From positions 4,876-68,875 of the forward strand of contig JALGZD010000218.1 of the NCBI GenBank assembly GCA_025782395.1: a DNA stretch of 64,000 nt, given 5' to 3'. A model generated the notes under the pieces. The model saw only the letters and a list, made by a program, of their open reading frames with translations. It was not told where the DNA came from and did no database searches. Position numbers and translations under genes: made by a program. Below, piece after piece: positions 10,931 to 63,533 of this stretch (its first letter is position 1; each line of letters begins with the position of its first letter). The DNA comes from a bacterium (GTDB lineage: Bacteria; Joyebacterota; Joyebacteria; Joyebacterales; Joyebacteraceae).

Positions 10931-11064
10931 GTCGCCCTCCCTGAGTGAGTCCCGCTCCGAGTAAGTCCCTCTCCCCTACACATACACCCGTTTAGTATAT
11001 CCCATATCAGCGCCTCAGCGTGTGTGCAATCCTCCAACGGTCGGCCCCGTACAATCGCAGGTTT

Positions 11065-12771: not shown

Positions 12772-12802
12772 CTCAGTGTGTCTCGAGCCAGCTCCGAGCC
12801 CA

Positions 12803-43302: not shown

Positions 43303-43364
43303 GAACTTCCTCCTTCCGCCGGTCGGCAGGCGCGTCCGGGCTCATGCCGCCGGCACCACATCAG

Positions 43365-45692: not shown

Positions 45693-45698
45693 AGGCGA

Positions 45699-48569: not shown

Positions 48570-49376
48570 TTAACTCGCCGTGTCGTACTCAGTTGCGAGC
48601 ATTTGAGCCACCTCGATTTCATCCTTGCTGAGCTCTCCTTCACTGAGCTTCAGACCCCATGCCTCAACGAACCCGGACATGACAGCGCGGGCGACCTCCT
48701 CGAAACCGACAGTACGATTGAGAAGAGCTGAAAGATCGGTCGTTCTGGAACGCAATAGCCGCCGCACGATTCCGCGCCGCTCCTCGCTGTCGATGAGCAT
48801 CAAATCGGCAAGCTGCTCGTGCGTGGAGTCCATAAGAAGCGAGCCGTGCTGCAGCATGCCTCTCCCCACGCGGCGTTGTGCGCTGCCTATCAGCTTCCGG
48901 CCGACGACGACGATCTCGTAGCGCCCGGAACCTACGAAGCAGGGTGGACTTGCCCCACCATCGCGGCCCCGTGCCGCAGGGACGACCGAGGCCAGTTCAG
49001 CCTCGACCCCCAACAGCCGGAGTCCCGCCAGGAGGGCGTCCGCAATCGCGCTGTACGCTTCCATGATCGAAGTGCCGATCGGCGATGTTCCCGACGGGGC
49101 GATGACCGAGTACGTGAGCTCCCCCGCGTGGAAGACGGCACGCCCGCCGGTAGGTCGCCGGACAACTCCGGCGCCGGCGCGCATGCATGCGCCAATGTCG
49201 AGCTCCGAATCGAGCGCTTGGGAGTACCCTATCGACACGGTCGGCGGCTCCCACGCGTAGACGCGAATGGTGGGTGGCGTCGTCCCCTGATTGACGCCCA
49301 GGAGCATGGCTTCATCGATGGCCATGTTCGTAGCGCCATCGTGGGCGCCGTCATTGAGAAAACGCCACGTCTGCAT
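48570..49376 (-). CDS. lipoate-protein ligase / octanoyltransferase family protein (BPL_LplA_LipB catalytic domain only)
   Basis: 268 aa. ...RRPTGGRAVFH...GRKLIGSAQRR motifs of the LplA/LipB/LipM catalytic domain. No C-terminal LplA accessory domain. Confidence 0.7.
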   Translation of the reverse strand: MQTWRFLNDGAHDGATNMAIDEAMLLGVNQGTTPPTIRVYAWEPPTVSIGYSQALDSELDIGACMRAGAGVVRRPTGGRAVFHAGELTYSVIAPSGTSPIGTSIMEAYSAIADALLAGLRLLGVEAELASVVPAARGRDGGASPPCFVGSGRYEIVVVGRKLIGSAQRRVGRGMLQHGSLLMDSTHEQLADLMLIDSEERRGIVRRLLRSRTTDLSALLNRTVGFEEVARAVMSGFVEAWGLKLSEGELSKDEIEVAQMLATEYDTAS

Positions 49377-49431: not shown

Positions 49432-50115
49432 TCAATCCATCAGATGCAACCAGTCTCTGAGCATGAACTGCATTCGTCCGATGAGAAGCGAGATACGGCC
49501 CATCACCGTGTAACCGAACGATGCACCGAACGCCACCATCAGAAACCAGATGCCGAGTCTCGCCACTCCGCCCAGAATTCCCTTGTGCTCCTTGGAGAAG
49601 AAGAAGTAGATGAGCGTTGAGAAAATCCCTGCAATGGCGATTGCGTTCAGGATGATCGCGAGAGGGCCTCCGGAGTCCAGGGGCATGGTCATCGTTGCAT
49701 GGATCTGGGCAACGAAGTCGCCCTGCGCGAAACCCGTGATGTTCACCGCGGCGTACATCCCGACGATGAACCCAAGCGACCACCGTGACAGCCACGAGAG
49801 CTTCGGGAAAAAGCGGAGCAGCATGAAGATGGCGAGGATCCCCGGAAAGATGCGAATCCACCGGACCGGGTCCCCACTCTCCCCCGGGAAGAGCGGAGTA
49901 ATCAGCTTGGGTACGAGGGTCTCGTGGTAGAGAAGCGCGAGCCAGTACGCAGCCCCGACGCCCACAAACAGGCTCTCAGCAAACTTGTAGAGCGGGTTGT
50001 CCTTGTAGAGGAAACTGTAGATGCAGATGGTCAGTATGGCGGCGACCCAACAGCCCCAGACCACGGAGGGTGGCGTTCCGGGCGGACCGTTGAACAGCAT
50101 GTGTAACCAGCTCAT
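49432..50115 (-). CDS. cassette copy 1 gene D: polytopic inner-membrane protein of unknown function (paralog of 52866..53501)
   Basis: Track ORF 49432..50178. Start placed at ATG 50115 (GAGGAA 3 nt upstream). 5-6 predicted TMs. Conserved YSFLYKDNP(L/F)YKFAE and C-terminal GASFGYTVM(G/S)R(I/V)SLLIGR. Confidence 0.55.
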   Translation of the reverse strand: MSWLHMLFNGPPGTPPSVVWGCWVAAILTICIYSFLYKDNPLYKFAESLFVGVGAAYWLALLYHETLVPKLITPLFPGESGDPVRWIRIFPGILAIFMLLRFFPKLSWLSRWSLGFIVGMYAAVNITGFAQGDFVAQIHATMTMPLDSGGPLAIILNAIAIAGIFSTLIYFFFSKEHKGILGGVARLGIWFLMVAFGASFGYTVMGRISLLIGRMQFMLRDWLHLMD

Positions 50116-50122
50116 GGTTTCC

Positions 50123-50968
50123 TCACTGGACGTCCCGTGCCCGACGCTTTTCCGAACGTCGCGAGATGAAGTAGACAATGTTCCCGAGCAAGATGAAGAC
50201 CACGATCAGCGCGTGAACGACCGACTGCGCGTCCATGCCGGATGTCGCATCGCCCGGTGCACCGACAAGAATCTCGTACTCTGCGGCGCCCTTCAGGCCA
50301 CCGAGAAGACCCGCCAGCTGCCCGCTCTGGATGTAGGGATAGAAGTTCGGCGCCCCGACGGCCGTCGTCCCGGAACCGAGAATCACGCGGAATCTGCTCC
50401 GGACCTGCTGGACCCACTCACGGGTGCCCGGAGTCCCCGCCGACACCTCCATGACGAACGCGATGTCGTCGAAATTCCGGACCTCCTGCATCAACGGGAT
50501 CTCCCCTACCGGCGTCCCGCCGTAGTCCGTCGGGAAGGTCTCGGGGATGCTCGCTCCCATACCGAGCAGCGTTACTATGCCGCCCGCCATGTAGCCGAGA
50601 TTCACGTAGTCCGTGCCGTACTCTTTGCCGAACTCCTCAGCCAGTGGACCAAGTGCCTGTTCCACCAACGGCGGCGATGCAGGCCACAGACACGCAACGA
50701 CGATCCTCAGATTCCTGCGGAATGCGTGCCTGATGAATGTCTGAGCCATCGGTTGAAGCTCCGGCATCGTGTCCGGGCTGTAGTCGCCCGCGAGCATGAC
50801 AATCGACCCCTCGGGCACGGCCTCAATCGCATCGTAGAGATCCTGCACCGGAGGCGAGACACCCATCGGCAGCTTGAGCGGCTGAAGCAGCGGCCACACG
50901 ACGGCCACCAGGACCAGCACGAAGATCAGCCGACGATCTATGTTTCTGATGTCGAACCCCTTGGCCAT
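50123..50968 (-). CDS. cassette copy 1 gene C: bitopic membrane protein (N- and C-terminal TM anchors flanking a ~220-aa alpha/beta domain), unknown function
   Basis: 281 aa. N-terminal TM (LIFVLVLVAVVWPLL), C-terminal TM (HALIVVFILLGNIVYFI) followed by basic tail RRSEKRRARDVQ. Paralog 53575..54420. Confidence 0.55.
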   Translation of the reverse strand: MAKGFDIRNIDRRLIFVLVLVAVVWPLLQPLKLPMGVSPPVQDLYDAIEAVPEGSIVMLAGDYSPDTMPELQPMAQTFIRHAFRRNLRIVVACLWPASPPLVEQALGPLAEEFGKEYGTDYVNLGYMAGGIVTLLGMGASIPETFPTDYGGTPVGEIPLMQEVRNFDDIAFVMEVSAGTPGTREWVQQVRSRFRVILGSGTTAVGAPNFYPYIQSGQLAGLLGGLKGAAEYEILVGAPGDATSGMDAQSVVHALIVVFILLGNIVYFISRRSEKRRARDVQ

Positions 50969-50971
50969 CGG

Positions 50972-51616
50972 CTACTTGTCTCCACCGAGATAGGAACGCT
51001 CGATCCCCAGGATAACGCGAAGCCCCATGGCCATCACGCCGAGAGCGGCACCCATCAGGATCCCGCGAAAGGCTGCCATGTTCGGGTAGGCCATGATCAT
51101 CTCTGTCAGCCACGGCAGCGTCGCCTGCTCAGGCAGCCCTCTCGTCAGGAGCTGGCCGAGCGGAACGCGCCCGAGCATAACGATGATGGCAGAGATGAGC
51201 AGCATGCTGGACTCCACCGAACGCAATCTGAAGGCGCGATAGGCGGCAGAAGCGATGAAGAACGCCAGCAGCGAGAACATCGTGCTCTGCAGCGGCACCT
51301 GCACATTGAGGAACATCCAGTTGAAGGCCGACCCTTCCTGGATCGTTCCCCAGGGGCCGCCGAAAAAGAGCATGATCGCCATCACCGACATGGTGACGAT
51401 ACTGTAGCCCCAACCTTCCTGCTTGCGGCTTATCTTCTTGTAATGGACGCGGATGAGATTTCCGACTCCGAGCAGGATCGATGCGGCTATCACGATCGTT
51501 CCCCACTGCTTCATCTCCGCGGCCGCCGAGCTGACCGCATGGTGCGGCACGAAAAAATCGACGAGCATGAACATGCCGACGAGGAACGTTATCGCAAGTG
51601 GTATTTCACGTCTCAT
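50972..51616 (-). CDS. cassette copy 1 gene B: polytopic inner-membrane protein of unknown function
   Basis: 214 aa, ~6 hydrophobic segments. Conserved LIRVHY(K/H)KI and FLNVQVP(L/I)(Q/E)(S/A)TMFSLLAF. Paralog 54467..55096. Confidence 0.55.
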   Translation of the reverse strand: MRREIPLAITFLVGMFMLVDFFVPHHAVSSAAAEMKQWGTIVIAASILLGVGNLIRVHYKKISRKQEGWGYSIVTMSVMAIMLFFGGPWGTIQEGSAFNWMFLNVQVPLQSTMFSLLAFFIASAAYRAFRLRSVESSMLLISAIIVMLGRVPLGQLLTRGLPEQATLPWLTEMIMAYPNMAAFRGILMGAALGVMAMGLRVILGIERSYLGGDK

Positions 51617-51631
51617 GAATATCGACTCCGA

Positions 51632-52855
51632 CTACTGCGTTTGGAACCAGGCCACGAACCACTCAAGACCGACGATGTGCGCGACGATGCCCGCCACCAT
51701 GAGAACAATGCTTACGACCTTCATCCAGTCGGAACCCTTGAGTCCCCCCAGAAGTTTCGGCTCTCTGGAGAGATATGCGCTTGCGGCGTAGAGCTCCTCG
51801 CCCATCAGGGTGAAATCACACGCCGTCACGAAGAAGGGAAGCTGGGAAACCATCGCCGTGCCGGCCACCTGGATGGCGCCGGCCTCAAAACCGGTCTCTG
51901 CCAGAAGCAACGACTCCGCCCAGAAAGCGCCCATGTAGAGATTGGCCGCCGGCTTCTCCCGCAGCATGATGCCGTTGACGGCCCCCGCGAAGGCGAACTG
52001 CGCGTCCGACAGATAGCGTATGTTGTCGGGATTGTAGGCGTCGGGATTGCCGACCTCGGCGTAGGCCTGCTTCACCACTTCCTCCGCCGCGGACATGACG
52101 ACGGCCCGGGCGGTCGGAACGATCAGCGGTGTGTCGTATCGTGCCGTGATCTTGGCGACGTGCGAGAGGATGTTGAGACTCGCGATGGTCATGATGTTGT
52201 CGATCTCGCCGATGCCCGGAACGTAGAGAACGGGGCGCCCCATCTCAGTGGCGCGTCCGACTGCCTCCTCGATGGCATTGAGGCCCGGAATGCGCCGCAC
52301 GAAGAGCTTCGCTCCTTTTCCGGCCGCCGCAGTGAACCACGTAACCATCGCGAAGAAAAGGAGCATCAACACAAGGACCGAGAGGCGAGACCACTGGAAC
52401 AGGTTGACCCGTCCGGCGACGGGTCCTGCCCACACGCGCTCGGAGCTGTTCGTGCCGTCGTACGCCTCCAGGCTGTAGTAGTACTCGACACCCGGTTCGA
52501 CCGACACATCCACGTAGTGCGTGGCACCGCTCGCGATCTCCTCGAGCACATCTCCCACTTCGCCCTCTGCGAGCGAACGCGACAGAACATAGCCCGTGAC
52601 ATCTCCGGCTCCGGAACCGTCATCCGGTGAGAGCCCCCACTCGATCTCGATCTTGTCGCCGGAGTCCGAGTGCTCAAGGTAGTCACGCACGGTGAGCGCG
52701 CACGGTGGACCGGGCGGAACGATGTCGAGAGCGGCCGATTCGATCCCGTCCTGTGGCGCGGTCTCCTGAGCCCGGACAGACCCGACTGCCGCCGCGGCAA
52801 GCGCAAGCGAAACGAGCAGTATGCGGCGAACTTGATTCATACGTGCTTTCCCCAA
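51632..52855 (-). CDS. cassette copy 1 gene A: secreted FN3-like domain, TM helix, ~230-aa conserved domain and C-terminal TM; unknown function
   Basis: 407 aa. Signal peptide LLVSLALAAAAVGSVRAQ. FN3-like region (EIEWGLSPDDGSG...YYYSLEAYDG). TM (LSVLVLMLLFFAMVTWF). Conserved VGRATEMG(R/K)P(V/I)L, GVNGIM(L/V)R, LAETG, TQLPFF(V/I)T(A/S)CD(F/Y)TL(M/I)GEELYAASAYLSREP. C-terminal TM. Paralog 55175..56380. Confidence 0.55.
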   Translation of the reverse strand: MGKARMNQVRRILLVSLALAAAAVGSVRAQETAPQDGIESAALDIVPPGPPCALTVRDYLEHSDSGDKIEIEWGLSPDDGSGAGDVTGYVLSRSLAEGEVGDVLEEIASGATHYVDVSVEPGVEYYYSLEAYDGTNSSERVWAGPVAGRVNLFQWSRLSVLVLMLLFFAMVTWFTAAAGKGAKLFVRRIPGLNAIEEAVGRATEMGRPVLYVPGIGEIDNIMTIASLNILSHVAKITARYDTPLIVPTARAVVMSAAEEVVKQAYAEVGNPDAYNPDNIRYLSDAQFAFAGAVNGIMLREKPAANLYMGAFWAESLLLAETGFEAGAIQVAGTAMVSQLPFFVTACDFTLMGEELYAASAYLSREPKLLGGLKGSDWMKVVSIVLMVAGIVAHIVGLEWFVAWFQTQ

Positions 52856-52865
52856 ACCGTCCCCG

Positions 52866-53501
52866 CTAGATCAGATGCAAGCAGTCGTGCAACAGGAAGC
52901 TCACGCGCCCGATCAGAAGAGATACTCGTGACATCACCGTGTATCCGAACGATGCGCCGAAACCCACCATCAGGAAGACAATGCCTACTCTGGCCATCAC
53001 ACCGAGGACGCCCTTGTGCTTCATCGAGAAGAAGAAATACGTGAGCGTTCCAAGAAGGCCTCCGACCACAAGGATGTTCGTAACAGATGTCAGTGGCAGT
53101 GCATTCGCACCTATCTGATCCAGCACGCGCGCCTGCATGATGGGCGAAAGACCGAGCCCGGCGTAGCCACCAACGTAGATGCCGAGCGGCCAGCGCCCCA
53201 CCCACCCGATCTTCGGGAAGAACCGCGTGTAAAGCAAGAGACCGAGAAGACCGGGTATCAGAGCCAGCCACCACGTGTTACTCCCAAGTCCTATCGCCTC
53301 ACCACCGAGCCGAAGCTGGAAGACGGGTGACACAACGTTCGGCTGGATGAAGTTGAAGTAGTAGATGACGAGATAGTAGCCGGCGGAGATGCCGACGACC
53401 AGATGCTCGGCGAATTTGTAGAACGGATTGTCCTTGTACAGAAAGCTGTACACGGAAAGCGTGAGCACTGCCCCGATCGTTGTCCAGATTATTGCCGCCA
53501 T
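52866..53501 (-). CDS. cassette copy 2 gene D (paralog of 49432..50115)
   Basis: Track ORF 52866..53645. Start at ATG 53501 (GGAGGAATCGATG). MAAIIWTTIGAVLTLSVYSFLYKDNPFYKFAEHL... Confidence 0.55.
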   Translation of the reverse strand: MAAIIWTTIGAVLTLSVYSFLYKDNPFYKFAEHLVVGISAGYYLVIYYFNFIQPNVVSPVFQLRLGGEAIGLGSNTWWLALIPGLLGLLLYTRFFPKIGWVGRWPLGIYVGGYAGLGLSPIMQARVLDQIGANALPLTSVTNILVVGGLLGTLTYFFFSMKHKGVLGVMARVGIVFLMVGFGASFGYTVMSRVSLLIGRVSFLLHDCLHLI

Positions 53502-53574
53502 CGATTCCTCCAGATGCTGCTTGTGGGTCGTACTCCGCCGCCGTTCATCGGCCGCGGCGCGGAAGAGCGCGAGA

Positions 53575-54420
53575 CTAGGCCGCGTTCCTCTCCTGCTCGC
53601 GTTTCTTCCGTCTGGCCCCAAAGTAGGCGATGTTGCCGAGAACAATCAGGATAATGATCAGGATGTGGATCACCGACTGCGAGTCCATGCCTCGAACTCC
53701 TGCGTCATGATGATCGATGAGCCCCTCGTACTCCGCCGCCCCACGCATCCCTCCCAGGAGCCCTACGAGCTGCCCGGTATCGAGGTACGGGTAGAAGTCC
53801 GTGGCCATGACCGCAGTAACGCCGGCTCCGACGTCCTGTCCATACGGCTGGTGCGCGTAGTAGACCCACGCCTCAGCCGCCGACCATCCCGCCAGACTGA
53901 TGAGAAGTGGAATGTCGTCGTAGTTCCTGACGCCGTCCAGTATCGGGATCTCACTCAGAGGTGTTCCGTACGCGTCTTCGGGGAAGACGTTCCGGATGTT
54001 CACCCCCATGCCGAGAATGACGGCCGAGATTCCGGGCTGGAACCCCAGGAAGCAGTAGTCCTCACCGTAGACCTGTCCCATCTCCTCCGCCACCTGGTTC
54101 ATCGCCCGTTCGGCCAGGCCGTAGCCTGCCGGATGCAGCGTCAGCACAGCCACGTTGACGTCGTTGCTGAACGCATGGCGCAGAAGTGCCAGGGACATGG
54201 GCTCAAGCTCCGGCAGCGTTGCCGGCGCGTAGTCGATCGCCAGAAGAAGCGGCTGCCCGTTCGGCGGAATCTCGTCGAGCGCGTCATACAGGTTCTGCAC
54301 GGGCTCCGTCACAACGACGGGTAGTCCTAAAGGGAAGAAAAACGGGATGATAACGGCGATTCCGATAGCAAGGAATATCCACCGGCGATCTATCTCCATG
54401 AATCTCTCAAAAATGTTCAT
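53575..54420 (-). CDS. cassette copy 2 gene C (paralog of 50123..50968)
   Basis: Track ORF 53575..54504. Start at ATG 54420 (MNIFERFMEIDRRWIFLAIG...), 281 aa, same bitopic architecture and basic C-terminal tail (RRKKREQERNAA). Confidence 0.55.
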   Translation of the reverse strand: MNIFERFMEIDRRWIFLAIGIAVIIPFFFPLGLPVVVTEPVQNLYDALDEIPPNGQPLLLAIDYAPATLPELEPMSLALLRHAFSNDVNVAVLTLHPAGYGLAERAMNQVAEEMGQVYGEDYCFLGFQPGISAVILGMGVNIRNVFPEDAYGTPLSEIPILDGVRNYDDIPLLISLAGWSAAEAWVYYAHQPYGQDVGAGVTAVMATDFYPYLDTGQLVGLLGGMRGAAEYEGLIDHHDAGVRGMDSQSVIHILIIILIVLGNIAYFGARRKKREQERNAA

Positions 54421-54466
54421 CGCTACCTCCGGATGCCTGGACAGCGGCGCGCGAGATCGGGAACCG

Positions 54467-55096
54467 CTAGTCTCCGCCTCCCATCCATGCCCGTTCGATC
54501 CCAAGAATAATCTTGAGCGATGTCGCCATCATCCCCAGACCGACGCCTATCATGATCCCCCGCTTGGCAGCCAGATTGGGAACCTCCAGGATCCAGCGTG
54601 TGGCCATCGGAATCGAGCTGTGAATCATGTCGCCGATCGGAACACGACCGAGCATGACTATGCAGGCCGCAACAAGAAGCAGGGTAGACTCGAGCGTCCT
54701 TGCCCTGAACGCCCTGAAGGCCGCTGATGCAACGTAGAATGCCAGGAGCGAGAACATCGTGGCCTCAATGGGAACCTGAACGTTCTGGAACATCTTATCG
54801 AACGGAGAACCTTGAGCATGGTGCGCGGAATGGAAGAACCCCAGCCCGATCATCAGGCAGAGCGCAAGTAGCGTCACCCAGCTGTAACCTCGATCGTCCG
54901 CCCTGTGTCTGATCTTGTGGTAGTGGACCCGAATCAGGCTGACCGTCCCCAGAAGAAATGCGAAGGCCAGGAGGGTCTGCAGCCATATGAGCAACCGCTC
55001 GTACATATCCTGCACCATAGGGTGCGGGATGAAGTACTGGACTGCCATGAAAAGCCCCGAGATGAAACAAAGGGCCAGTGGAAACTGACGACGCAT
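54467..55096 (-). CDS. cassette copy 2 gene B (paralog of 50972..51616)
   Basis: 209 aa polytopic membrane protein, conserved motifs as in copy 1. Confidence 0.55.
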   Translation of the reverse strand: MRRQFPLALCFISGLFMAVQYFIPHPMVQDMYERLLIWLQTLLAFAFLLGTVSLIRVHYHKIRHRADDRGYSWVTLLALCLMIGLGFFHSAHHAQGSPFDKMFQNVQVPIEATMFSLLAFYVASAAFRAFRARTLESTLLLVAACIVMLGRVPIGDMIHSSIPMATRWILEVPNLAAKRGIMIGVGLGMMATSLKIILGIERAWMGGGD

Positions 55097-55174
55097 CGTA
55101 CCATCCTCTCAGAATCGTCCCTGCGAAGCCGCACCGGAAACCCCAGCGGCGCGCGACCCGCTCGAGAACGCTAC

Positions 55175-56380
55175 CTAGCCTGTCGCAAGCAACGGGAGCA
55201 CAAAATTGCTCTCAATGACCCCGGTAGCCGTCAGCGTCGCAGCGATCACACCAACAACAAGGACCGCTGCGGCAATCAGTTTGAACATGTCCTGTCCCTT
55301 GAGACCACCCAGGAGGATAGGCTCTCTGGAGAGGTAGGCACTGGCCGCGTAGAGTTCTTCTCCGATGAGTGTATAATCGCACGACGTAATGAAGAACGGA
55401 AGTTGAGTCACGGCATCCGTTCCGGCTATCTGAATGGCCCCGATAGAAGAGCCTGTCTCCGCAAGAACAAGTGACTCTGCGTAGAACATGCCCATATAGA
55501 GAATCGTCGCGGGGCGCTGGCGAACCATGATTCCGTTGACACCGGCGACGTATGCGAACTGGCTTCGAGTCAGATAGAAGACATCGTCCTCGTTGTAGGC
55601 GTCGGGCCTTCCGGCCTTCGCGTACGCCTCCTTAACGACCTCCTGCTCGACAGCCATCACAATCGGATCCGCGCAGGGAACGATGAGCTTCGTGTTGTAC
55701 TCCGCCGTCTTCTTCGCGACTTCTCCCAGAATATTGATCGCCGCAATCGTCGCTACGTCAGAGACTGAGGAGAGACCTGAGATGAAGAGGATCGGCTTGC
55801 CCATTTCCGTCGCGCGGCCGACGGCGTTGTCCATCTCATCGAGCCCCGCCAGGCGCCGGATAAACAGCTCTTTCCCCGACTTTGCCGCCGTGACGAAGTA
55901 GACAATCGATACAACGAAGATGATGACGGCCACCATCACATTGAGCCGAGACCTATTGAACCACTGAGAAAAGGCCTCCACGGGGCCGAACGTCCCCGAG
56001 AAGAACAGGGACTCGTCCGTATCGAGGGCCGCCACACGGTAGTATGTCGGCTCGCTGTTGTCTATCCCGCTGTCGCGGTACTCGGTCTCCCCATGGGGGA
56101 CCCGGCCCACGAAGACGAAACCCGTCTCCGGATGGGCGGACCGAAAAACCTCGTACCCGGCAACGATGCCATCATTGTCATCGTCCGCTGACAGCTCCCA
56201 CGTTACATCGATGGAGCTGCCACGATCGTTCGGCGTATCGACAGCCATCAGACCCGTGGGCGGCGCGATGGGCAAGAGCGTCTCCAGCGCAACCGTTTCC
56301 GTCTCTTCCTGTGCAAACACCGCGACAGGACATAAGAAAAGGGCCGCCACTGCTACGGAGAGCGCAACGAACCCTGCCAT
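55175..56380 (-). CDS. cassette copy 2 gene A (paralog of 51632..52855): FN3-like domain, TM, conserved domain, C-terminal TM
   Basis: Track ORF 55175..56461. Start placed at the ATG giving MAGFVALSVAVAALFLCPVAVFAQEE (signal peptide). Shares the long conserved block with copy 1 A. Confidence 0.5.
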   Translation of the reverse strand: MAGFVALSVAVAALFLCPVAVFAQEETETVALETLLPIAPPTGLMAVDTPNDRGSSIDVTWELSADDDNDGIVAGYEVFRSAHPETGFVFVGRVPHGETEYRDSGIDNSEPTYYRVAALDTDESLFFSGTFGPVEAFSQWFNRSRLNVMVAVIIFVVSIVYFVTAAKSGKELFIRRLAGLDEMDNAVGRATEMGKPILFISGLSSVSDVATIAAINILGEVAKKTAEYNTKLIVPCADPIVMAVEQEVVKEAYAKAGRPDAYNEDDVFYLTRSQFAYVAGVNGIMVRQRPATILYMGMFYAESLVLAETGSSIGAIQIAGTDAVTQLPFFITSCDYTLIGEELYAASAYLSREPILLGGLKGQDMFKLIAAAVLVVGVIAATLTATGVIESNFVLPLLATG

Positions 56381-56556
56381 TGGGCCTATGCCGCCAGACC
56401 GCCCTCTGTCACCGAGCATCAACCGCTCCTTTCGTGCTTCCGTAACGTCGAGGGTTCCCATGGAACCCCCGACGCACTCTGCATTCGATTGCCAAGAAGG
56501 CTATCAGACGATTCAGTCGGTGTCAAGCCTAAGGGACGTCGGCATGAGGAAGCTTG

Positions 56557-57681
56557 CTACCGCTCTATCATTTCCACGTTGGCGCGCGGCAGCACGGTCT
56601 CGGACCCGTCGGCGAGCTTCACCCCTAGAACACGCACCATCGACTCGGACTCCATCTTCCGGAGTTCGTTCGGGAGCTCCGTAACAACGCCGAGGCTGCC
56701 GAAGTGAGGCTCCCGGATGATGCGAATGCTGCTTCCGATCTCGAGTCCGGCGGAACTCGACGCGTCTTGGCCGTCAGGCAGCTCAGCATCCGGCATCGGA
56801 ATGACGATCTCCGGCCGCATGACCCCGGCCCTGATCTGGGTTGCGCCGTTGATAGATGCCTTCTTCCCCTCTCTCGATTTCAGGAGGCTGAATGTACCTC
56901 CGGCCATTGCCATCGCGCCGAATCCCTCAGTCAGGATCAGCGTTGTCGCAATGTCCTCGGAACCGGTGATGGCGACACCGAGGTCCTTTCCCAGAAGCTT
57001 CTTGAGATCCGGGTCATCGAACCCACCGACCACTATGCCGCTCACCCCCATCTTCATCGCCTGCTGAAACCCGGCCCAGTCGACGTGCGAGCCGCCGATC
57101 ACGACCTTGTTCTTCATCGACTTGTCAAAAAGGGAAGCCTCAAGCTTTTGGTCGGGGCTGTCGACGGCAACGCGTATCTCCCCCGCCGTCTCCCCGCCTA
57201 CGCCGAAGATACCCTGGATGAACGACCCCTTGACCTCGATCGCTACACCTTCGTTCTCGAAAACCTCAACTACCTCCCCGTCCACGTATGCGTCCACTTG
57301 GATTGGCATGGGAGGCTCGCGAAGGATAACCTGCCCCGTGATGGTAGAAATGCTGTCGAGAGTACCGTCACACGGCGAGTTGACGGTCGCCTTGAAGAGA
57401 CCGAAGAATCCCTTCGTCATGGCGATCGGTTTCCCCCTCTCAATGGGATCTCCCGCCTTCCTGATCATGACGGACGGGAGGTCCTCCGGCGGGAGACCGA
57501 GCTTGCTTGCAACATTGACTAGCTGCACGTTGCCGGGAAGATGAGTTCGAGCCACGATCGTGTCCGATGAGACGTGATCGCCCTTGGAGACGATCACCTC
57601 TCCCTTGATGGGCAGGCGTCGCTCCTTTCTGAGCACGGTCATCTCTGAAACTCGCAACCCTGGCGTGTATGCGTGGGCCAT
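56557..57681 (-). CDS. hypothetical protein with N-terminal barrel-sandwich-hybrid (NqrA/RnfC-N-like) domain and a Gly-rich alpha/beta domain
   Basis: 374 aa. N-terminal KGDHVSSDTIVART...NSPCDGTLDSI pattern resembles the NqrA/RnfC N-terminal hybrid barrel. No lipoyl-lysine motif, no TM. Confidence 0.35.
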   Translation of the reverse strand: MAHAYTPGLRVSEMTVLRKERRLPIKGEVIVSKGDHVSSDTIVARTHLPGNVQLVNVASKLGLPPEDLPSVMIRKAGDPIERGKPIAMTKGFFGLFKATVNSPCDGTLDSISTITGQVILREPPMPIQVDAYVDGEVVEVFENEGVAIEVKGSFIQGIFGVGGETAGEIRVAVDSPDQKLEASLFDKSMKNKVVIGGSHVDWAGFQQAMKMGVSGIVVGGFDDPDLKKLLGKDLGVAITGSEDIATTLILTEGFGAMAMAGGTFSLLKSREGKKASINGATQIRAGVMRPEIVIPMPDAELPDGQDASSSAGLEIGSSIRIIREPHFGSLGVVTELPNELRKMESESMVRVLGVKLADGSETVLPRANVEMIER

Positions 57682-57717
57682 GATCTGTTCTCCTCATTTT
57701 TGAGCGAATCGCCGGTG

Positions 57718-59520
57718 CTACGCCGGGTAGGCGTCAAGGGCCCTCGCCCACTTTTCCAGCTTCTGGACGCGCTTGTGCTCGTCGGTCGGAAGTTCGAAGG
57801 GACGTCCTCTGGTATCCACTATGAGTCCAACCACGCCACCGGTGAGTGTGCACTCGAGCGGCTTGCCGGCCCCCGCGCCCAGGTTGAATCCCTTCGCCGG
57901 AGTGAGCTTGGCGTTCACGGACTCTCCGATGGCGAGTGGGTAGACGATCATCTCACCGAACGGGATGTCATCGTTGACCACCGTGCCGTTCGGCAGCCTC
58001 GCCTCTACCTTCAGACAGGGCTTACCTTCCTGGGAAATCCCCACAGGAGACACGAGCGTCCCAAGGTAGATGAGGCAGTCTTTCTCGAACACCTCGGTCG
58101 CAGCCTTCTCGTGGACGCCCGCCAGAACCCCGAGCTGCGGCATCATGAAGATGGAGTCGACCGCCAGCTGCGTTATCCCCGCCGGCAAGAACGCATCTAT
58201 CATCATGAGAGCGGCCTGCTGTCTCCGCGGAGCATGAGAGAGAACACCGCCGGAACCGACCAGGATATCAAGATCCATCATGTTGACGAGCGTCTCACCT
58301 GAAGCCGACTGGCTGAACGCCTCGGAGATGGTTCGCTCCTGCTGGACGCCCTTCAAGCCTACCGCGAACGACTTGTGCTGGACGAATGCCAGCCTGAGCG
58401 CCTCTCGTGCTATCGCCTGCTCGATCTTGAGGTCTTCGAGCGACTGAGGAACCGTCGTCGGCCGGATCATCTTGTTCTTGATCCGGTTCCGCACCGACAG
58501 TTCCGGGAGCTTGAACGGAACCCACCGCATGACATTGTCGATCCCGGCCTCAGCCAGCACGTTTGAGACCGAGTAGCTCATGCCGAGGTTGGCGGAGACG
58601 GTTCGATTGAAGGTGTGCTGAAAGACTGAGAAGATGTCCGTCGTGGCTCCCCCGATATCGACGCCGACAACCTCGATTCCCCGCTGCTCTGCGATGGTCT
58701 GCATGATCAAACCGACGGCTCCCGGAGTCGGCATGATGGGCGCATCCGTCCAGCCCATCAGCTTGTTGTACCCGGGCGCCTGCGCCATGACGTGCTCCAT
58801 GAAAAGCTCGTGGATCTCTTCCCTCGCGGGTCCCAGGTTCTCCCTCTCCAGGACGGGACGGAGATTGTCGACCATCGAGAGGGCGGTCTTTTCGGCGAGC
58901 AAGTCGGTGACCTCGTCGCGGGCGTCTACATTGCCGGCGAAGATGACCGGAAGGTTGTAGCCCATACCCAGACGAGGCTTGGGATCGGCTGCGGAGATGA
59001 CCTGGCCCAGCTCGACTACGTGCGTAACTGTCCCGCCGTCGATGCCGCCCGAGAGCAGTATCATGTCGGGCCTTAGATGTCTGATCCGCTCGATCTGCTC
59101 GTGAGGAAGCCTCCCGTCGTTGGAAGCCAGGACGTCCATCACGATGGCGCCCGCGCCCAGCGCTGCTCTCTCCGCGCTCTCGGCCGTCATGCTCTTCACC
59201 ACACCCGCCACCATCATCTGGAGGCCACCGCCCGCGCTCGAGGTAGACAGGTAGAGATCGACACCTCTGTCTCCTCCGTCGCTTGGATGGATGAACGTCT
59301 CTCCATCCAGAATCGTGTGCCCGGACAGCTCCTCCACCTCCCGAACCGCGTTCAACACGCCTCTGGTCACATCCTCGAACGGAGCCTCGACCGTCGTCGG
59401 CGCCTCTCCCCTGACGACGAGCCTGTACTCCCCGTCGACCAGCTTGATGAGAATCGCCTTCGTGGTCGTGCTCCCGCAGTCGGTGGCGACTATGGCCCTG
59501 ATCTTCCCGTTCTCACTCAT
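57718..59520 (-). CDS. ASKHA-fold (actin-like ATPase) protein of the GlmL/MutL glutamate-mutase-accessory-like family, unusually long (~600 aa)
   Basis: Track ORF to 59541; start probably MSENGKIRAIVATDCGSTTTKAILI (D-x-GST-x-TK phosphate-1 motif). Second nucleotide-binding block VGVDIGGATTDIFSV. No GlmE/GlmS genes nearby. Confidence 0.4.
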   Translation of the reverse strand: MSENGKIRAIVATDCGSTTTKAILIKLVDGEYRLVVRGEAPTTVEAPFEDVTRGVLNAVREVEELSGHTILDGETFIHPSDGGDRGVDLYLSTSSAGGGLQMMVAGVVKSMTAESAERAALGAGAIVMDVLASNDGRLPHEQIERIRHLRPDMILLSGGIDGGTVTHVVELGQVISAADPKPRLGMGYNLPVIFAGNVDARDEVTDLLAEKTALSMVDNLRPVLERENLGPAREEIHELFMEHVMAQAPGYNKLMGWTDAPIMPTPGAVGLIMQTIAEQRGIEVVGVDIGGATTDIFSVFQHTFNRTVSANLGMSYSVSNVLAEAGIDNVMRWVPFKLPELSVRNRIKNKMIRPTTVPQSLEDLKIEQAIAREALRLAFVQHKSFAVGLKGVQQERTISEAFSQSASGETLVNMMDLDILVGSGGVLSHAPRRQQAALMMIDAFLPAGITQLAVDSIFMMPQLGVLAGVHEKAATEVFEKDCLIYLGTLVSPVGISQEGKPCLKVEARLPNGTVVNDDIPFGEMIVYPLAIGESVNAKLTPAKGFNLGAGAGKPLECTLTGGVVGLIVDTRGRPFELPTDEHKRVQKLEKWARALDAYPA

Positions 59521-59887
59521 CAGCACCTTCCTCTGGTTCATCGGCCGCGCGCTTCGCCTCCTTACGCCGCCTCTTTTCTTTCCTGGTCTTCTGTTGCTCC
59601 TCCGCCTCGAGTTCCTCTATGCGTCGAAGAAGACGCTCCACGTTCTCCCTGTCTTCCAGGAGCGTCATGATATCGTCGTAGCTCTTGAAGGTGAAGATGC
59701 TCTGAACGATGGGCTGGAAAAAGACCATCGTCTGGTTTCCGAGGAACGACAGGGGCTTGACCGACTCCAGAAACAGGATCGCCGGGGTTGCGAGCCGTCG
59801 CTCGACGATTTTCTGAGCGAACCGGTCCAGCACCTCAGACGGCTCCTTGTCCTCCGTCTCCTCCTTTGCCGCTCTCATCGACCACAT
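59513..59887 (-). CDS. small acidic/basic coiled-coil hypothetical protein
   Basis: 124 aa. C-terminal EELEAEEQQKTRKEKRRRKEAKRAADE charged helix. Confidence 0.3.
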   Translation of the reverse strand: MWSMRAAKEETEDKEPSEVLDRFAQKIVERRLATPAILFLESVKPLSFLGNQTMVFFQPIVQSIFTFKSYDDIMTLLEDRENVERLLRRIEELEAEEQQKTRKEKRRRKEAKRAADEPEEGADE

Positions 59888-60305
59888 CCCTCACGTCCTC
59901 CTCGCGGTTCACAATCATCCGCTCGACAACAGCCATGACCTCGTCGCGGTTGCCGTGAAACTGGAGCGACACACCGCGAAAGCGTTCGAGCCTCGAGCGA
60001 CCGACGAAGGGAGAAAGAAGCACGCCCTCACGATCCTTGTGGAAGCTCCGGAACTCGCTCCAGCTCTTTTCTTTTCTGCTCACGAGTCCCTTGACGAAGA
60101 CGCTCTCATCTGTAAGGCTGTAGTGCGTCGGCAGGTAGAAGCCGGCGACCTGCCCCCACATCAGGAGCACTGCCAGAACAGTGAAATAGCCGGTTTCGAG
60201 CCAGCTTTGAAGAGTCCACGCCAAGAGAGCGATGACGGCCAGTCCGGCCACCGCCCTGACAGGACTCCTGAGCATCGGCCAAGCCGTCCAGGAGAGCTCC
60301 GCCAC
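59835..60305 (-). CDS. membrane protein with two N-terminal TM helices and a bacterial PH-like (bPH/YdbS-type) domain
   Basis: 156 aa. Two hydrophobic segments, then SLTDESVFVKGLVSRKEKSWSEFRSFHKDREGVLL, reminiscent of membrane-proximal bPH domains. Confidence 0.35.
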   Translation of the reverse strand: MAELSWTAWPMLRSPVRAVAGLAVIALLAWTLQSWLETGYFTVLAVLLMWGQVAGFYLPTHYSLTDESVFVKGLVSRKEKSWSEFRSFHKDREGVLLSPFVGRSRLERFRGVSLQFHGNRDEVMAVVERMIVNREEDVRDVVDESGKGGDGGQGAV

Positions 60306-60307
60306 GG

Positions 60308-61801
60308 TCAGCCCCGCCTCCAGCTCACGTCCAGATCCTTGGAAGCCCGGACTTCGTCCAGTCTGCCGACAGGAGTCCGGCTCGGTGCACCTTTGACAAC
60401 CTCAGGGGTGAACTCGCTCTCACGAGCGATATCTATCATGACGCTGATGAAGTGATCGAGTGAGCGTTTGCTTTCGCTCTCCGTCGGCTCGATCATGAGC
60501 GCCTCGCTGACAATGAGGGGGAAGTAGACGGTCGGGGCGTGCACGCCGAAGTCCAGAAGCCGCTTCGCCACATCGAGCGCCTTGACGCCGTGCTCCTTCT
60601 GTCTGGATGCCGAGAGCACGAACTCGTGCTGGCAGTAGTCCTTGTATGGAAGCTCGTAGTGTCCTTCGAGCTTATGCTGCAAGTAGTTGGCATTCAGGAG
60701 AGCGTTCTCCGCGGCTCTCCTCAACCCCGCCGGGCCGAGCGTGAGGATGTACGAATACGCTTTGACCATCACAAGGAAATTGCCGTAGACCCCGTGGACC
60801 TTGCCGATCGACTTCGGGCGTTCATAGTCAAGGTAGTACTCGATTCCCCTGGATCTTGCTTCATCCCGGGCGATCACCGGATAAGGCAGATAGTCGGCCA
60901 GTCTGTTCGTCACACCTACGGGTCCGGATCCAGGACCGCCTCCGCCGTGCGGAGATGAGAACGTCTTGTGCAGGTTGAAATGCATGAGGTCGAACCCGAT
61001 GTCCCCCGGCCGAACGATGCCCATGAGGGCATTCAGATTCGCGCCATCCATGTAGACCAGCCCACCCACACCGTGCACGATCTCGATGATCTCCGAGATC
61101 CTGCTCTCGAACACGCCGAGCGTGTTCGGATTCGTTATCATGATGGCCGCCGTCTCGCTGTCGACGATCCGTCTGAGTTCATCCACATCCACGCGCCCAG
61201 AGCTATCCGACTTGATCTCGACCGCCTCGTAACCGGCGAGTGTGAGGCTGGCAGGATTCGTTCCGTGGGCGGAGTCGGGCACGATGACCTTGGATCGGGG
61301 GTTCCCCTTGTCAGTGTGGTAGGCCCTGACAATGAGCATTCCAGTCAGCTCACCGGACGCACCTGCGGGTGGCTGCAGCGAGACCTGGTCCATGCCGGAG
61401 ATAGCCGCCAGATGCTTTGCCAGATCGTGCATCAGCGCCAGTGCGCCCTGCGAGTCGGTCGCGTCCGCCTCCGGATGGAGACGCGTAAAGCCCGGCAGCT
61501 GCGCCACGTCCTCGTTCACCTTGGGGTTGTACTTCATCGTGCAGGACCCGAGAGGATAGAAACCCCGATCCACGTGGTGATTCATCTCGGCCAACCGCGT
61601 GAAATGCCTCACCACCTCCGGCTCTGTGAGCTCGGGAAAGTCGGGCTCAACGCTCCGCACCTGATTCTCGCCGAACACCTCCACCGGATCGATCGGCGGC
61701 ACGTCCAGCGGGGGAAAGCGGTAGCCCCTTCGGCCGGGTGAACTGAGTTCGAAGATGGTCGGCTCGACAACGGTCTTCTGTCTTTCAGCGGCGCCGCTCA
61801 T
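60308..61801 (-). CDS. gcvPB: glycine dehydrogenase (decarboxylating) subunit 2
   Basis: 497 aa. PLP-dependent fold, GcvPB motifs (HLNLHKTFS... with conserved Lys, GSCTMKYNPK). Confidence 0.9.
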   Translation of the reverse strand: MSGAAERQKTVVEPTIFELSSPGRRGYRFPPLDVPPIDPVEVFGENQVRSVEPDFPELTEPEVVRHFTRLAEMNHHVDRGFYPLGSCTMKYNPKVNEDVAQLPGFTRLHPEADATDSQGALALMHDLAKHLAAISGMDQVSLQPPAGASGELTGMLIVRAYHTDKGNPRSKVIVPDSAHGTNPASLTLAGYEAVEIKSDSSGRVDVDELRRIVDSETAAIMITNPNTLGVFESRISEIIEIVHGVGGLVYMDGANLNALMGIVRPGDIGFDLMHFNLHKTFSSPHGGGGPGSGPVGVTNRLADYLPYPVIARDEARSRGIEYYLDYERPKSIGKVHGVYGNFLVMVKAYSYILTLGPAGLRRAAENALLNANYLQHKLEGHYELPYKDYCQHEFVLSASRQKEHGVKALDVAKRLLDFGVHAPTVYFPLIVSEALMIEPTESESKRSLDHFISVMIDIARESEFTPEVVKGAPSRTPVGRLDEVRASKDLDVSWRRG

Positions 61802-63153
61802 CAGGCCCCCCTCGAAACGATGATGGCTTCGAGTCCGGACACGAGAGAGTCGATGTCCTCACGCGAGTGTCTCTCTGTGACCGAGACAAGAAGGCAGTTC
61901 GGCATGTCGTCGTAGTAGCATCCGCACTTGATTCCGGGCCAGATACCGACCTCGGAGAGGGCCTCCTTCGCTGTGCCGGCCTCGAACGGGAGTTCGATGA
62001 CGAACTCCCGGAAGAACGCTCCACCGAACTTGAGCTTGATGCCGCGCACGAGAGAGAGTTGCTCCGCCGCGTAGCGGGTCTTCGCGGCCACCTGCAACGC
62101 CAGCTCGCTCAGCCCCGCACGCCCGAGGAGCGACATCTGCACGGTCGCCGCGAGCGCCACGAGACCCTGATTCGTACATATGTTCGATGTCGCCTTCTCG
62201 CGACGAATGTGCTGCTCCCGCGTCTGGAGCGTCATCACATACCCGCGCCGCCCCTCGGCATCGCTGGTCGCTCCAATGATCCGACCCGGCATGCGGCGGG
62301 CGTGCTTCCGGCCGGCCGCGATGAAGCCCAGAAGCGGCCCACCGAAGGCCACTGCCACGCCGAGCGACTGCGCCTCCCCGATCGCTATGGTCGCCCCGTA
62401 CTCCGAGGGCGGCTTCAGAAGCGCAAGGGAGACGGGATCTACGGATGCGACGAGAGGCGCTCCCGACTCCCTGACGATCCCACCTATTCGGTCGACTGGT
62501 TCCAGGAGCCCAAAGAAGTTCGGATGCTGAATGAGAACGGCGCCCGCGTTCTCGAGCTTCGCTTCGAGCGCAGCGACATCCGTGACACCCGAGTCCATCG
62601 GTATCTCAACGAGCTCCAGGTCTGTCGCCATGAGATATGTCCTGAGAACGCTTCTGAGAGCTGGATTCGCGGTGCTCGAAACGAGCACTCTCTTACGGCG
62701 GCTGATGGCCGTCGCCATCAGCACCGCCTCGGCTCCGGCGGTCGCACCATCGTACAGCGAAGCGTTCGCGACATCGAAACCCGTGAGTCTCGTGATCAGC
62801 GACTGAAACTCGTAGATGGCCTGGAGGGTTCCCTGACTCACCTCAGCTTGATACGGCGTGTACGCCGTGTAGAAATGCGGCAGCCCGGTGATGTGTCCCA
62901 CCGCCGCGGCAGTAGCATGATCGTAGATGCCGCCTCCGAGGAAGGAGACAACGTCATCGGGCACCCGGTTCATAGCCGCGAGGTGCTGCATGTGGCGCGT
63001 GAGTTCGAGCTCCGACAACGGACCGGGAACGTCGAGATCGCCTTCCGTGCGCAGCTCTCTGGGAATACCGACGATCAGGTCGTCGAATGACTTCGCCCCG
63101 ATCTCGCGCAGCATCTCCCGCCGGTCTTCATCGGTGTTGGGTACGTACGGCAC
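61801..63153 (-). CDS. gcvPA: glycine dehydrogenase (decarboxylating) subunit 1
   Basis: 450 aa. MPYVPNTDEDRREMLREIG... typical GcvPA N-terminus. Stop overlaps the gcvPB start. Confidence 0.9.
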   Translation of the reverse strand: MPYVPNTDEDRREMLREIGAKSFDDLIVGIPRELRTEGDLDVPGPLSELELTRHMQHLAAMNRVPDDVVSFLGGGIYDHATAAAVGHITGLPHFYTAYTPYQAEVSQGTLQAIYEFQSLITRLTGFDVANASLYDGATAGAEAVLMATAISRRKRVLVSSTANPALRSVLRTYLMATDLELVEIPMDSGVTDVAALEAKLENAGAVLIQHPNFFGLLEPVDRIGGIVRESGAPLVASVDPVSLALLKPPSEYGATIAIGEAQSLGVAVAFGGPLLGFIAAGRKHARRMPGRIIGATSDAEGRRGYVMTLQTREQHIRREKATSNICTNQGLVALAATVQMSLLGRAGLSELALQVAAKTRYAAEQLSLVRGIKLKFGGAFFREFVIELPFEAGTAKEALSEVGIWPGIKCGCYYDDMPNCLLVSVTERHSREDIDSLVSGLEAIIVSRGA

Positions 63154-63155
63154 TT

Positions 63156-63533
63156 CTATCCTTTCGTGTGTTCCTCGTACTCGTCGGCCGTCATGAGACC
63201 GTCCACGGCGGAAGCATCGTCAACCTTGAGTTTGACGATCCAACCTTCTCCGTACGGATCGGAGTTGACGAGATCGGGACTGTCCTCCAGAGCCGCATTC
63301 GCATCGACTACGTCGCCGGCGACCGGCGCATAGATCTCGCTGACGCTCTTCACCGATTCGACCGTCGTGAGTACGTCACCGGCGGCAACGTGCGTTCCTG
63401 CTGCCGGCAGTTCGACGAAAACGATGTCTCCGAGCTCGCCCTGCGCGTAGTCGGTCAGACCAATGAGCGCGTCGTTACCCTTCATTTTCAACCACTCGTG
63501 TGATTTCGTGAATCTGAGATCCCGCTTGCTCAT
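63156..63533 (-). CDS. gcvH: glycine cleavage system H protein (lipoyl carrier)
   Basis: 125 aa. Lipoyl-lysine motif ESVKSVSEIYAPVAG. Confidence 0.9.
   Translation of the reverse strand: MSKRDLRFTKSHEWLKMKGNDALIGLTDYAQGELGDIVFVELPAAGTHVAAGDVLTTVESVKSVSEIYAPVAGDVVDANAALEDSPDLVNSDPYGEGWIVKLKVDDASAVDGLMTADEYEEHTKG

Follow-up and report, generated by a model that had tools for sequence, protein, structure and literature searches.

The stretch of DNA analysed here (the window, 64,000 nucleotides of contig JALGZD010000218.1) carries on its minus strand a group of genes centred on a protein of 607 amino acids (aa), p607, a putative ATPase of the ASKHA fold encoded directly upstream of a 374-aa partner, p374. 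Two small genes, p156 and p124, precede this pair and two tandem cassettes of four membrane-protein genes each (A-B-C-D) follow it, the whole being framed by the glycine-cleavage (gcv) genes and by a gene for a lipoate-protein ligase (lplA) (Table 1). Four minus-strand open reading frames (ORFs), of 374, 607, 124 and 156 aa, were recovered within 56557-60305, in agreement with the first-pass annotation, a model's reading of the letters alone, together with the two p607 motifs that it quoted (residues 14-33, KIRAIVATDCGSTTTKAILI; residues 291-301, VGVDIGGATTD). In the ORF listing every gene from 48.5 kb to the window end is on the minus strand, and the order of transcription is gcvT-gcvH-gcvPA-gcvPB-p156-p124-p607-p374-cassette 1-cassette 2-LplA ligase-909-aa ORF. 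Neighbouring genes abut or overlap one another, p156 beginning 2 nt past gcvPB, and a simple scan for promoters and terminators gave no signal exceeding a shuffled control; both observations are compatible with one long operon, without being proof of it.

Gene starts differ between annotation pipelines, p607 being called with 607 aa (JGI) or 600 aa (NCBI, start at M8) and p374 with 374 aa (NCBI) or 361 aa (JGI). The long starts lead to overlaps of 53 nt between p124 and p156 and of 29 nt between p607 and p124. Both p607 and p374 are considered as genuine genes, because each has thousands of homologues and p607 keeps 64-71% identity between phyla. Long antisense ORFs within p607, p374 and the cassette genes also cluster as "conserved" between loci, in DNA of about 60% G+C; we regard these clusters as shadows cast by the conserved sense genes and not as genes.

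Table 1. Features of the p607-p374 locus and its flanks (window coordinates).
Feature	Position	Strand	Description
p374	56557..57681	-	374 aa; partner protein, three structural parts
p607	57718..59541	-	607 aa; ASKHA-fold ATPase (putative), Pfam MutL family
p124	59513..59887	-	124 aa; small accessory protein, directly upstream of p607
p156	59835..60305	-	156 aa; frequent accessory gene in the gcvPB/p124 interval
Cassette 1 (A1-B1-C1-D1)	52866..56461	-	four membrane-protein genes
A1	55175-56461	-	signal sequence, Fn3, TM (transmembrane segment), DUF6754, TM
B1	54467-55096	-	polytopic
C1	53575-54504 (probable start 54423)	-	TM, ~220-aa extracytoplasmic domain, TM
D1	52866-53645	-	polytopic
Cassette 2 (A2-B2-C2-D2)	49432..52855	-	four membrane-protein genes
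A2	51632-52855	-	cassette 2
B2	50972-51616	-	cassette 2
C2	50123-50968	-	cassette 2
D2	49432-50178	-	cassette 2
LplA/LipB-type lipoate-protein ligase	48570..49376	-	268 aa; PF21948, E 2e-38
909-aa ORF	45699-48428	-	TonB-receptor-like, by eye
gcvPB	60308-61801	-	497 aa; PDB match (1wyt/1onl set)
gcvPA	61801-63153	-	450 aa; PDB match (1wyt/1onl set)
gcvH	63156-63533	-	125 aa; PDB match (1wyt/1onl set)
gcvT (3' part)	63574 to beyond 63996	-	named by position and synteny

p607 matches the Pfam MutL family (PF13941) with 423 bits (cut-off 27), residues 17-489 covering profile positions 1-450 of 450, and its best NCBIfam models are GlmL and Or-4. Its scores nevertheless stay below every curated cut-off: 226.6 bits for GlmL (NF040745) against an equivalog cut-off of 475, 214 bits for Or-4 (NF040744) against 600, and 159.3 bits for TIGR01319 against a subfamily cut-off of 204. 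The GlmL model (459 positions) spans residues 18-487. The first-pass annotation had given the protein as about 150 aa longer than GlmL, and the difference is indeed ~148 aa, with extensions of 17 aa (N-terminal) and 120 aa (C-terminal). The C-terminal addition (residues ~490-607) is an extra beta-sandwich followed by a helix, as read from the AlphaFold (AF2) model and the alignment, and is kept across the subfamily; the model has a pLDDT of 72.6 overall and above 90 in this domain.

Three ATP motifs are invariant in 32 homologues of p607, namely phosphate-1 (DCGSTTTK), phosphate-2 (DIGGATTD) and adenosine (GSGGVLSHAP), as are the positions D21/K28, D295-D302 and G429-G432. Foldseek retrieved Hsc70/DnaK, N-methylhydantoinase, acetone and acetophenone carboxylases, Ppx/GppA and sugar kinases, with a probability of ~1.0 for Hsp70, hydantoinase, Ppx and sugar kinases; these structural neighbours are generic ASKHA proteins at low TM-scores, obtained with a query model of moderate quality. 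The three motifs and the two-lobed fold place p607 in the ASKHA superfamily. A sequence search of the PDB detected no chain. Among 19 genomes outside the closest relatives, the median identity is 67.5% for p607, 55.8% for p374, 53.0% for GcvPB, 47.2% for GcvPA, 45-51% for the A-D subunits and 33% for LplA, and by this comparison p607 ranks as the most conserved gene of the locus. One homologue, in locus L024, is broken at ~2400-2600 by a masked run of N, which gives a false frameshifted tail in alignments.

From these family data p607 is best described as a distinct subfamily of ~600 aa, a new branch of a known family and a deep paralogue of GlmL/MutL. It shares with GlmL/MutL and Or-4 the Pfam family, the ASKHA fold, collinearity over ~470 residues and the DxGSTxTK and DIGGATTD motifs, and differs from them by its sub-threshold scores, by its additional C-terminal beta domain and by the lack of a B12 mutase nearby; GlmL is a single ASKHA module of ~460 aa. 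MutL/GlmL has been described as a chaperone reactivating glutamate mutase (PMC4682846), and the partners of GlmL are GlmS and GlmE, whereas those of p607 are p374, p124 and the membrane cassettes. Neither of the direct neighbours, p124 and p374, has a Pfam match to B12-binding or mutase E domains (the rest of the 64-kb window is not fully annotated), as the earlier remark on missing B12 mutase subunits had it; no B12-binding or mutase E gene is listed in any of 13 related loci annotated with Pfam, and no aminomutase gene of the oraS/oraE context occurs in the p607 neighbourhood. The initial GlmL/MutL-like assignment is thus retained for the Pfam family and the fold, and is considered wrong as a function because the scores fall below the cut-offs, an extra C-terminal beta domain is present and a glmS/glmE context is missing.

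The AF2 model of p374 (pLDDT 85.5) consists of three parts: a beta-rich N-terminal half (~11-171) with a barrel-sandwich-hybrid (BSH) fold, a Rossmann-like alpha/beta domain in the middle (~193-295), and a small KOW/SH3-like barrel at the C-terminus (~318-372). A motif, AHAYTPGL, is conserved close to the N-terminus. No Pfam or NCBIfam family was above threshold, no relative was found in the PDB by sequence or by profile, and Foldseek matches in the PDB, to KOW domains of NusG and Spt5, covered just the final ~60 residues, with no whole-chain match. The protein of the window is sub-threshold for RnfC_N (16.6 bits, cut-off 25.6) and for Biotin_lipoyl. Among 35 homologues scanned singly, weak matches were obtained to RnfC_N (30/35), Biotin_lipoyl (28/35) and NQRA_N (9/35), and a Bacillota homologue passes NQRA_N (41 bits, cut-off 25). 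A profile search gave 1439 relatives of p374 at E<=1e-10, each named match among the 120 listed being the record of a metagenome-assembled genome (MAG), and the exact sequence of the window protein was not on record when looked up.

The NqrA- or RnfC-like hybrid barrel proposed at first for p374 therefore stands as a fold, short of membership in either family. As in NqrA and RnfC, the barrel opens a soluble cytoplasmic protein encoded beside membrane subunits and is followed by a Rossmann-like domain. The likeness ends there: by Pfam, p374 has no other Nqr/Rnf domain, the downstream domains and the Fe-S/flavin motifs are missing, and so are the Nqr/Rnf-type membrane subunits, B, C and D matching no Pfam family and B and D not being homologous to each other. 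In the alignment of the 35 homologues no Lys, Cys, His, Asp or Ser is invariant; of the candidate hairpin positions, whose placement in the hairpin we infer, residue 89 varies between K, Q, A, G and S, and R121 is an invariant Arg. Since there is no invariant Lys, p374 is not considered as a biotin/lipoyl carrier, and since the other residue types are not invariant either, it looks more like an adaptor than a catalyst.

Relatives of p607 were searched exhaustively over 1.84 billion representative proteins, and many of them are 950-1050 aa long. P0242 (995 aa) contains p607 followed by p374 in one chain (46% identity over the p374 part, E 9e-111). The same arrangement is found in P0252 (1003 aa, Ozemobacteraceae), where the p374 part was read by eye in the sequence, and in the distant Cloacimonadota proteins P0311, P0315 and P0306, P0311 being without the KOW end in the alignment. 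In P0270, a p124-like segment is N-terminal to p607 (43% identity over 74 aa, E 1e-15). These p607-p374 and p124-p607 fusion proteins show that p124, p607 and p374 are physically coupled. Other relatives are anchored: a large extracytoplasmic region and a TM helix precede p607 in P0249 (Bacillota), whose ectodomain includes Peptidase_M1, and in P0244, and a TM segment alone is N-terminal in P0251 (Chloroflexota). As such TM-anchored relatives exist, the unit can work at the membrane. Within a distant fused branch (~39-42% identity to p607), an XRE/Cro-type helix-turn-helix (HTH; CylR2, E 2.4e-10) precedes the fused p607~p374 of P0348, and Zn-ribbon-like Cys pairs are seen by eye at the N-termini of P0317 and P0379, with a possible second HTH in P0379; these additions hint at a branch of the family in transcription control.

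p124 has a central hydrophobic or amphipathic segment, a charged tail and no Pfam match, and occurs in 33 of 85 p374-seeded loci. p156, with N-terminal hydrophobic segments at residues 11-36, occurs in 28 of the 85; it had been called bPH-like, and this label is dropped, as p156 and four homologues match neither bPH nor any other Pfam model at E<=1.

In the cassettes, subunit A carries DUF6754 (Pfam, E 2e-122) and an Fn3 domain recognised through PDB profile matches to titin, and the TM topology of all subunits was predicted from hydropathy. The DUF6754 part of A would be cytoplasmic, judging from charge distribution, and the ~220-aa domain of C probably faces outward. Neither Pfam nor the PDB gave a match for B, C or D, and in PDB searches with A and C (single-sequence and profile) the Fn3 domain of A was all that was recovered. 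As hhalign finds no homology between A and C or between B and D, nor between any cassette subunit and p374, the four families are taken as unrelated to one another and to p374, and an Nqr/Rnf-like origin of the cassettes is unsupported. With 45-48% identity, cassettes 1 and 2 are old paralogues, and related Eisenbacteria loci contain separate orthologues of the two (71-83% identity). In a reciprocal metagenome scan the order A-B-C-D was invariant in 80 A-seeded loci, with 1-3 tandem copies. Lone cassettes also occur, amid unrelated housekeeping genes in which no theme was found (purF-like, Wza-like, ahcY, pmbA/tldD, C25 peptidase). The cassettes thus occur in several copies, often far from the p607-p374 pair, and each p374-seeded locus of FCB type that was examined has a single pair. 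In Bacillota, locus L090 has two full-length p607 paralogues and a fragment; there, at 10001-13999, p607 is preceded by an ectodomain and a TM segment.

Gene neighbourhoods were compared from a p374 profile scan of one genome per species, which gave at least 594 loci; the best 80 were retained and five more, reached through p374 homologues, were added to form the clustered set of 85. p607 is directly upstream of p374 in 51 of these. The arrangement uvrA-gcvT-gcvH-gcvPA-gcvPB-p156-p124-p607-p374-(A-B-C-D)1-3-lplA is common to Eisenbacteria, Fermentibacteria/Aegiribacteria and several unclassified MAGs, often with a TonB-receptor-like gene after it, and the shorter p124-p607-p374-(A-B-C-D)n recurs in many phyla of the FCB group. 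Ignavibacteria, Zixibacteria and Synergistia have p124-p607-p374 and up to three cassettes without gcv. In the first two of these lineages, TolQ/TolR/TolA(TonB)-like genes, recognised by ORF sizes and order and not scanned against families, come after p374, and an extra gene for 258-273 aa lies between p607 and p374 (L025, 9196-9972; L078, 9150-9971; L059, 6773-7555). In L025 the encoded protein combines a signal-like N-terminus with a hydrophobic segment at the C-terminus, and in L059 it has no Pfam match. An intein or insertion in p607, suspected from a distance of ~2.6 kb between the p607 and p374 starts, is in fact this separate gene.

Further combinations connect the pair to the cassettes. 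On the marine FCB-type contig L088, p124 and a fused p607~p374 gene stand directly upstream of A-B-C-D, in a context of aldehyde dehydrogenase and aminotransferase genes. On a Chloroflexota contig the order is A-B-C-D-p607-p374, all six proteins being matched by hidden Markov models built from FCB sequences (E 5e-32 to 2e-117) and the C subunit being expanded to 1081 aa. In the 5-Mb genome of L093, p156 (a weak homologue), p124, p607, p374 and A lie near bactofilin, mreB and mreC. Synteny in FCB phyla and in Chloroflexota thus supports a link between the unit and the DUF6754 cassettes, which had been left as a possibility in the first-pass annotation. As a caveat, many cassettes lie apart from the pair, and some lineages have pairs with no cassettes close by.

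Some neighbours were set aside. uvrA, accA, PatA_N and a 278-aa family ("X278") were considered as possible partners and rejected as leftovers of the gene order of a lineage. The 278-aa protein (no Pfam match), accA and PatA_N follow p374, with p607 absent, in L084 (10001-13540), in similar WOR-3/Stahlbacteria loci and in L039, L041 and L067; the 278-aa family and PatA_N are also found at the far end of full gcv...lplA clusters, which suggests a relic of an earlier gene order. A 1060-aa ORF upstream of p374 in one WOR-3 locus, tried as a giant MutL, is TMEM260-like with TPR repeats. In the window, the region downstream of lplA (41271-48428) contains, besides the 909-aa ORF, a 775-aa protein without Pfam match and two outer-membrane beta-barrel candidates, one with a sub-threshold PorV-like match (42331-43302) and one with a FadL/Toluene_X-like match (41271-42341), and in many related loci the module is followed by a receptor-like gene. 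None of the eight module proteins matched a PADLOC defence model at E<=0.01.

The gcv genes of the window were identified by PDB matches to the 1wyt/1onl set (gcvPB, E 5e-149; gcvPA, E 1e-100; gcvH, E 8e-39), the gcvT label resting on position and on the cluster conserved in related loci. An lplA-like cluster, defined by a tblastn match to the window gene, comes after the cassettes in many loci. The gcv...lplA frame is, however, kept in only part of the FCB-group loci, and the core module is found without gcv in Ignavibacteria, Zixibacteria, Synergistia, Chloroflexota and Bacillota. For this reason the two flanks are treated as inherited gene order, perhaps with co-expression, and not as mechanism; the gcv flank is probably co-transcribed with the module and outside its core, and the mechanistic link to glycine cleavage that had been suggested is unsupported.

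The reading that is tentatively preferred, while still falling short of probable, is that p124, p607 and p374 form a cytoplasmic ATP-driven switch which, docked on subunit A, drives or gates the ABCD complexes, with several cassettes served by one pair. The three proteins would make up one cytoplasmic unit around the ATP-binding ASKHA protein, in which p607 would bind and hydrolyse ATP through its intact actin-fold motifs, p374 would be a non-catalytic adaptor beside the extra C-terminal beta domain of p607, and p124 would occupy its N-terminal side. The unit would sit at the inner face of the membrane and dock, in this organism, on the DUF6754 domain that subunit A would place in the cytoplasm. 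A precedent for p374 is NqrA, which has the same hybrid-barrel fold at its N-terminus and is a cytoplasmic peripheral subunit of a membrane complex. In ASKHA proteins of the reactivase or Hsp70 type (DdrA/DdrB, EutA, DnaK/Hsc70), nucleotide-driven closure is thought to remodel a dedicated partner, and a comparable closure of the p607 lobes would drive or gate the activity of ABCD across the membrane, be it transport or control of the Fn3 and periplasmic domains. As in Hsp70/DnaK, a beta-rich domain and then a terminal helix come after the ASKHA domain of p607, and Hsc70 and DnaK are among its top Foldseek matches, at low TM-scores of 0.2-0.28; DdrA and EutA are not among the top 50 structural matches, no PDB sequence match was found and the partners are unrelated. 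One pair would probably serve several paralogous cassettes in trans, and such sharing would explain the exceptional conservation of p607. ATPase competence of p607, docking on subunit A and sharing in trans are points that we infer, and the identity of the driven process is speculative.

Several observations weigh against this proposal. Of 32 A-seeded loci of at least 12 kb, just 8 have p607 or p374 within 10 kb. Bacillota pairs have no ABCD nearby and either adjoin an ABC/FtsX transporter with its own ATPase or carry their own ectodomain, the fused gene of Cloacimonadota stands alone, and p374 is unlinked from p607 in Poribacteria and in many loci of WOR-3 and Stahlbacteria, although the two genes are adjacent in further members of the last two groups. 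To our knowledge, no transporter or mechanotransducer has been shown to be driven by an ASKHA ATPase. The XRE-type HTH and the Zn-ribbon-like Cys pairs of fused relatives point to sensing or regulation over energising. The p607 model, with its pLDDT of 72.6, is of only moderate quality.

An alternative that is unlikely and still deserves weight is that the p607-p374 pair is a sensor or regulator, which would sense a ligand, a nucleotide or the energy state and gate ABCD or, when fused to an HTH, control transcription, in the manner of ROK/Mlc-type regulators, which move back and forth between DNA and a membrane transporter. Beside the HTH of P0348 and the features read by eye in P0317 and P0379, it would accommodate the monocistronic fused gene of Cloacimonadota with no membrane partners nearby, the lack of catalytic-type invariant residues in p374 and the variability of the N-terminal additions, as is usual in signalling modules. 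The relatives with an HTH or Zn-ribbon-like Cys pairs are, however, members of the distant branch, and p607 of the window has no DNA-binding domain; moreover, the ATP-hydrolysis motifs are all strictly invariant, and 67% conservation across phyla is unusual for a ligand sensor.

It is rather more improbable that p607-p374 is a soluble ATP-dependent enzyme of amino-acid or peptide catabolism, related to hydantoinase, oxoprolinase and acetone carboxylase, with the ABCD complexes as importers. This group is a structural neighbour of p607 in Foldseek (N-methylhydantoinase, acetone and acetophenone carboxylases) and provides its nearest Pfam family outside MutL, Hydantoinase_A (PF01968; 25.5 bits for the whole protein, cut-off 22.9), and the contexts are metabolic in places (gcv here, aldehyde dehydrogenase and aminotransferase in L088, an M1 aminopeptidase ectodomain in Bacillota). 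But no single stretch of p607 passes for Hydantoinase_A, the match being 45 residues (274-319) around phosphate-2, there is neither a Hydantoinase_B/HyuB-like partner gene nor a duplicated ASKHA architecture, and p607 was thus rejected as a hydantoinase/oxoprolinase A member. Likewise, p374 has no invariant residue of catalytic type, the TM-tethered and HTH-fused variants are ill-suited to a soluble enzyme, and the neighbours of lone cassettes have no metabolic theme.

A still smaller probability is given to p607 as a scaffold or polymer, which would organise an envelope machine as FtsA, PilM or MreB do, with p374 and p124 as adaptors. Conservation over the whole length of p607 would fit many interfaces, membrane anchoring occurs in relatives, and envelope or shape genes are neighbours in some loci (the tolQ/R/A-like genes, by ORF sizes and order only; bactofilin, mreB and mreC in L093). 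In PilM-PilN, FtsA and GspL, too, bitopic or polytopic membrane proteins with periplasmic domains are the partners of an actin-fold protein; the ASKHA proteins of these systems, however, have no sequence or family relation to p607, are mainly scaffolds and have known pilus, divisome and secretion partners. The actin superfamily has evolved polymers repeatedly, and glutamate mutase is listed among its non-polymerising enzymes (PMC5597319); p607 groups with this non-polymerising branch of MutL, hydantoinase and Hsp70, its self-association is without support, and the neighbouring genes vary and are mostly housekeeping. Finally, p607 might be a true GlmL-type chaperone that reactivates a B12-dependent mutase whose genes lie elsewhere in the genome; this is highly improbable and already largely refuted: in spite of the full-length Pfam MutL match and of GlmL and Or-4 as top NCBIfam models, p607 scores less than half of both equivalog cut-offs, neither flanking gene is GlmS- or GlmE-like and the 13 annotated loci list no mutase gene, its constant partners are p374, p124 and ABCD, and it is fused to p374, to a TM segment with an ectodomain or to an HTH and never to a mutase subunit, so that this reading fails on curated score, mutase context and architecture.

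In source annotations p607 homologues are named "glutamate mutase L", "methylaspartate mutase" or "TIGR01319 family", and those of p374 "hypothetical" or "KOW domain-containing". For the p607 subfamily the glutamate-mutase label is very likely wrong, and this mislabel will mislead metabolic reconstructions of uncultivated phyla. p607 is the sole component in a functionally named family, A matching Fn3 and DUF6754 and the others nothing; literature searches on DUF6754, PF13941, TIGR01319 and GlmL found nothing on the p607 subfamily, DUF6754, PF13941 and TIGR01319 not being named in any paper of the library that was searched, and the assembly of p124, p607, p374 and cassettes appears to be without a described counterpart, its function being deduced from sequence and context. 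The module is widespread, p374 being present in more than 590 species-level genomes, and p607, which exceeds GcvP in conservation, is a strong candidate for a part of basic cell biology that has been missed in the FCB group, Chloroflexota and neighbouring lineages. As the fusion proteins show which parts touch, the question is experimentally approachable. That the module is an unrecognised envelope machine, in which p124-p607-p374 powers or gates paralogous A-B-C-D complexes in trans, is possible though doubtful; if true, many phyla that are largely uncultivated, the FCB group and Chloroflexota among them, would share this housekeeping system, with an energy coupling distinct from that of ABC, P-type and rotary ATPases and of motors driven by ion-motive force.

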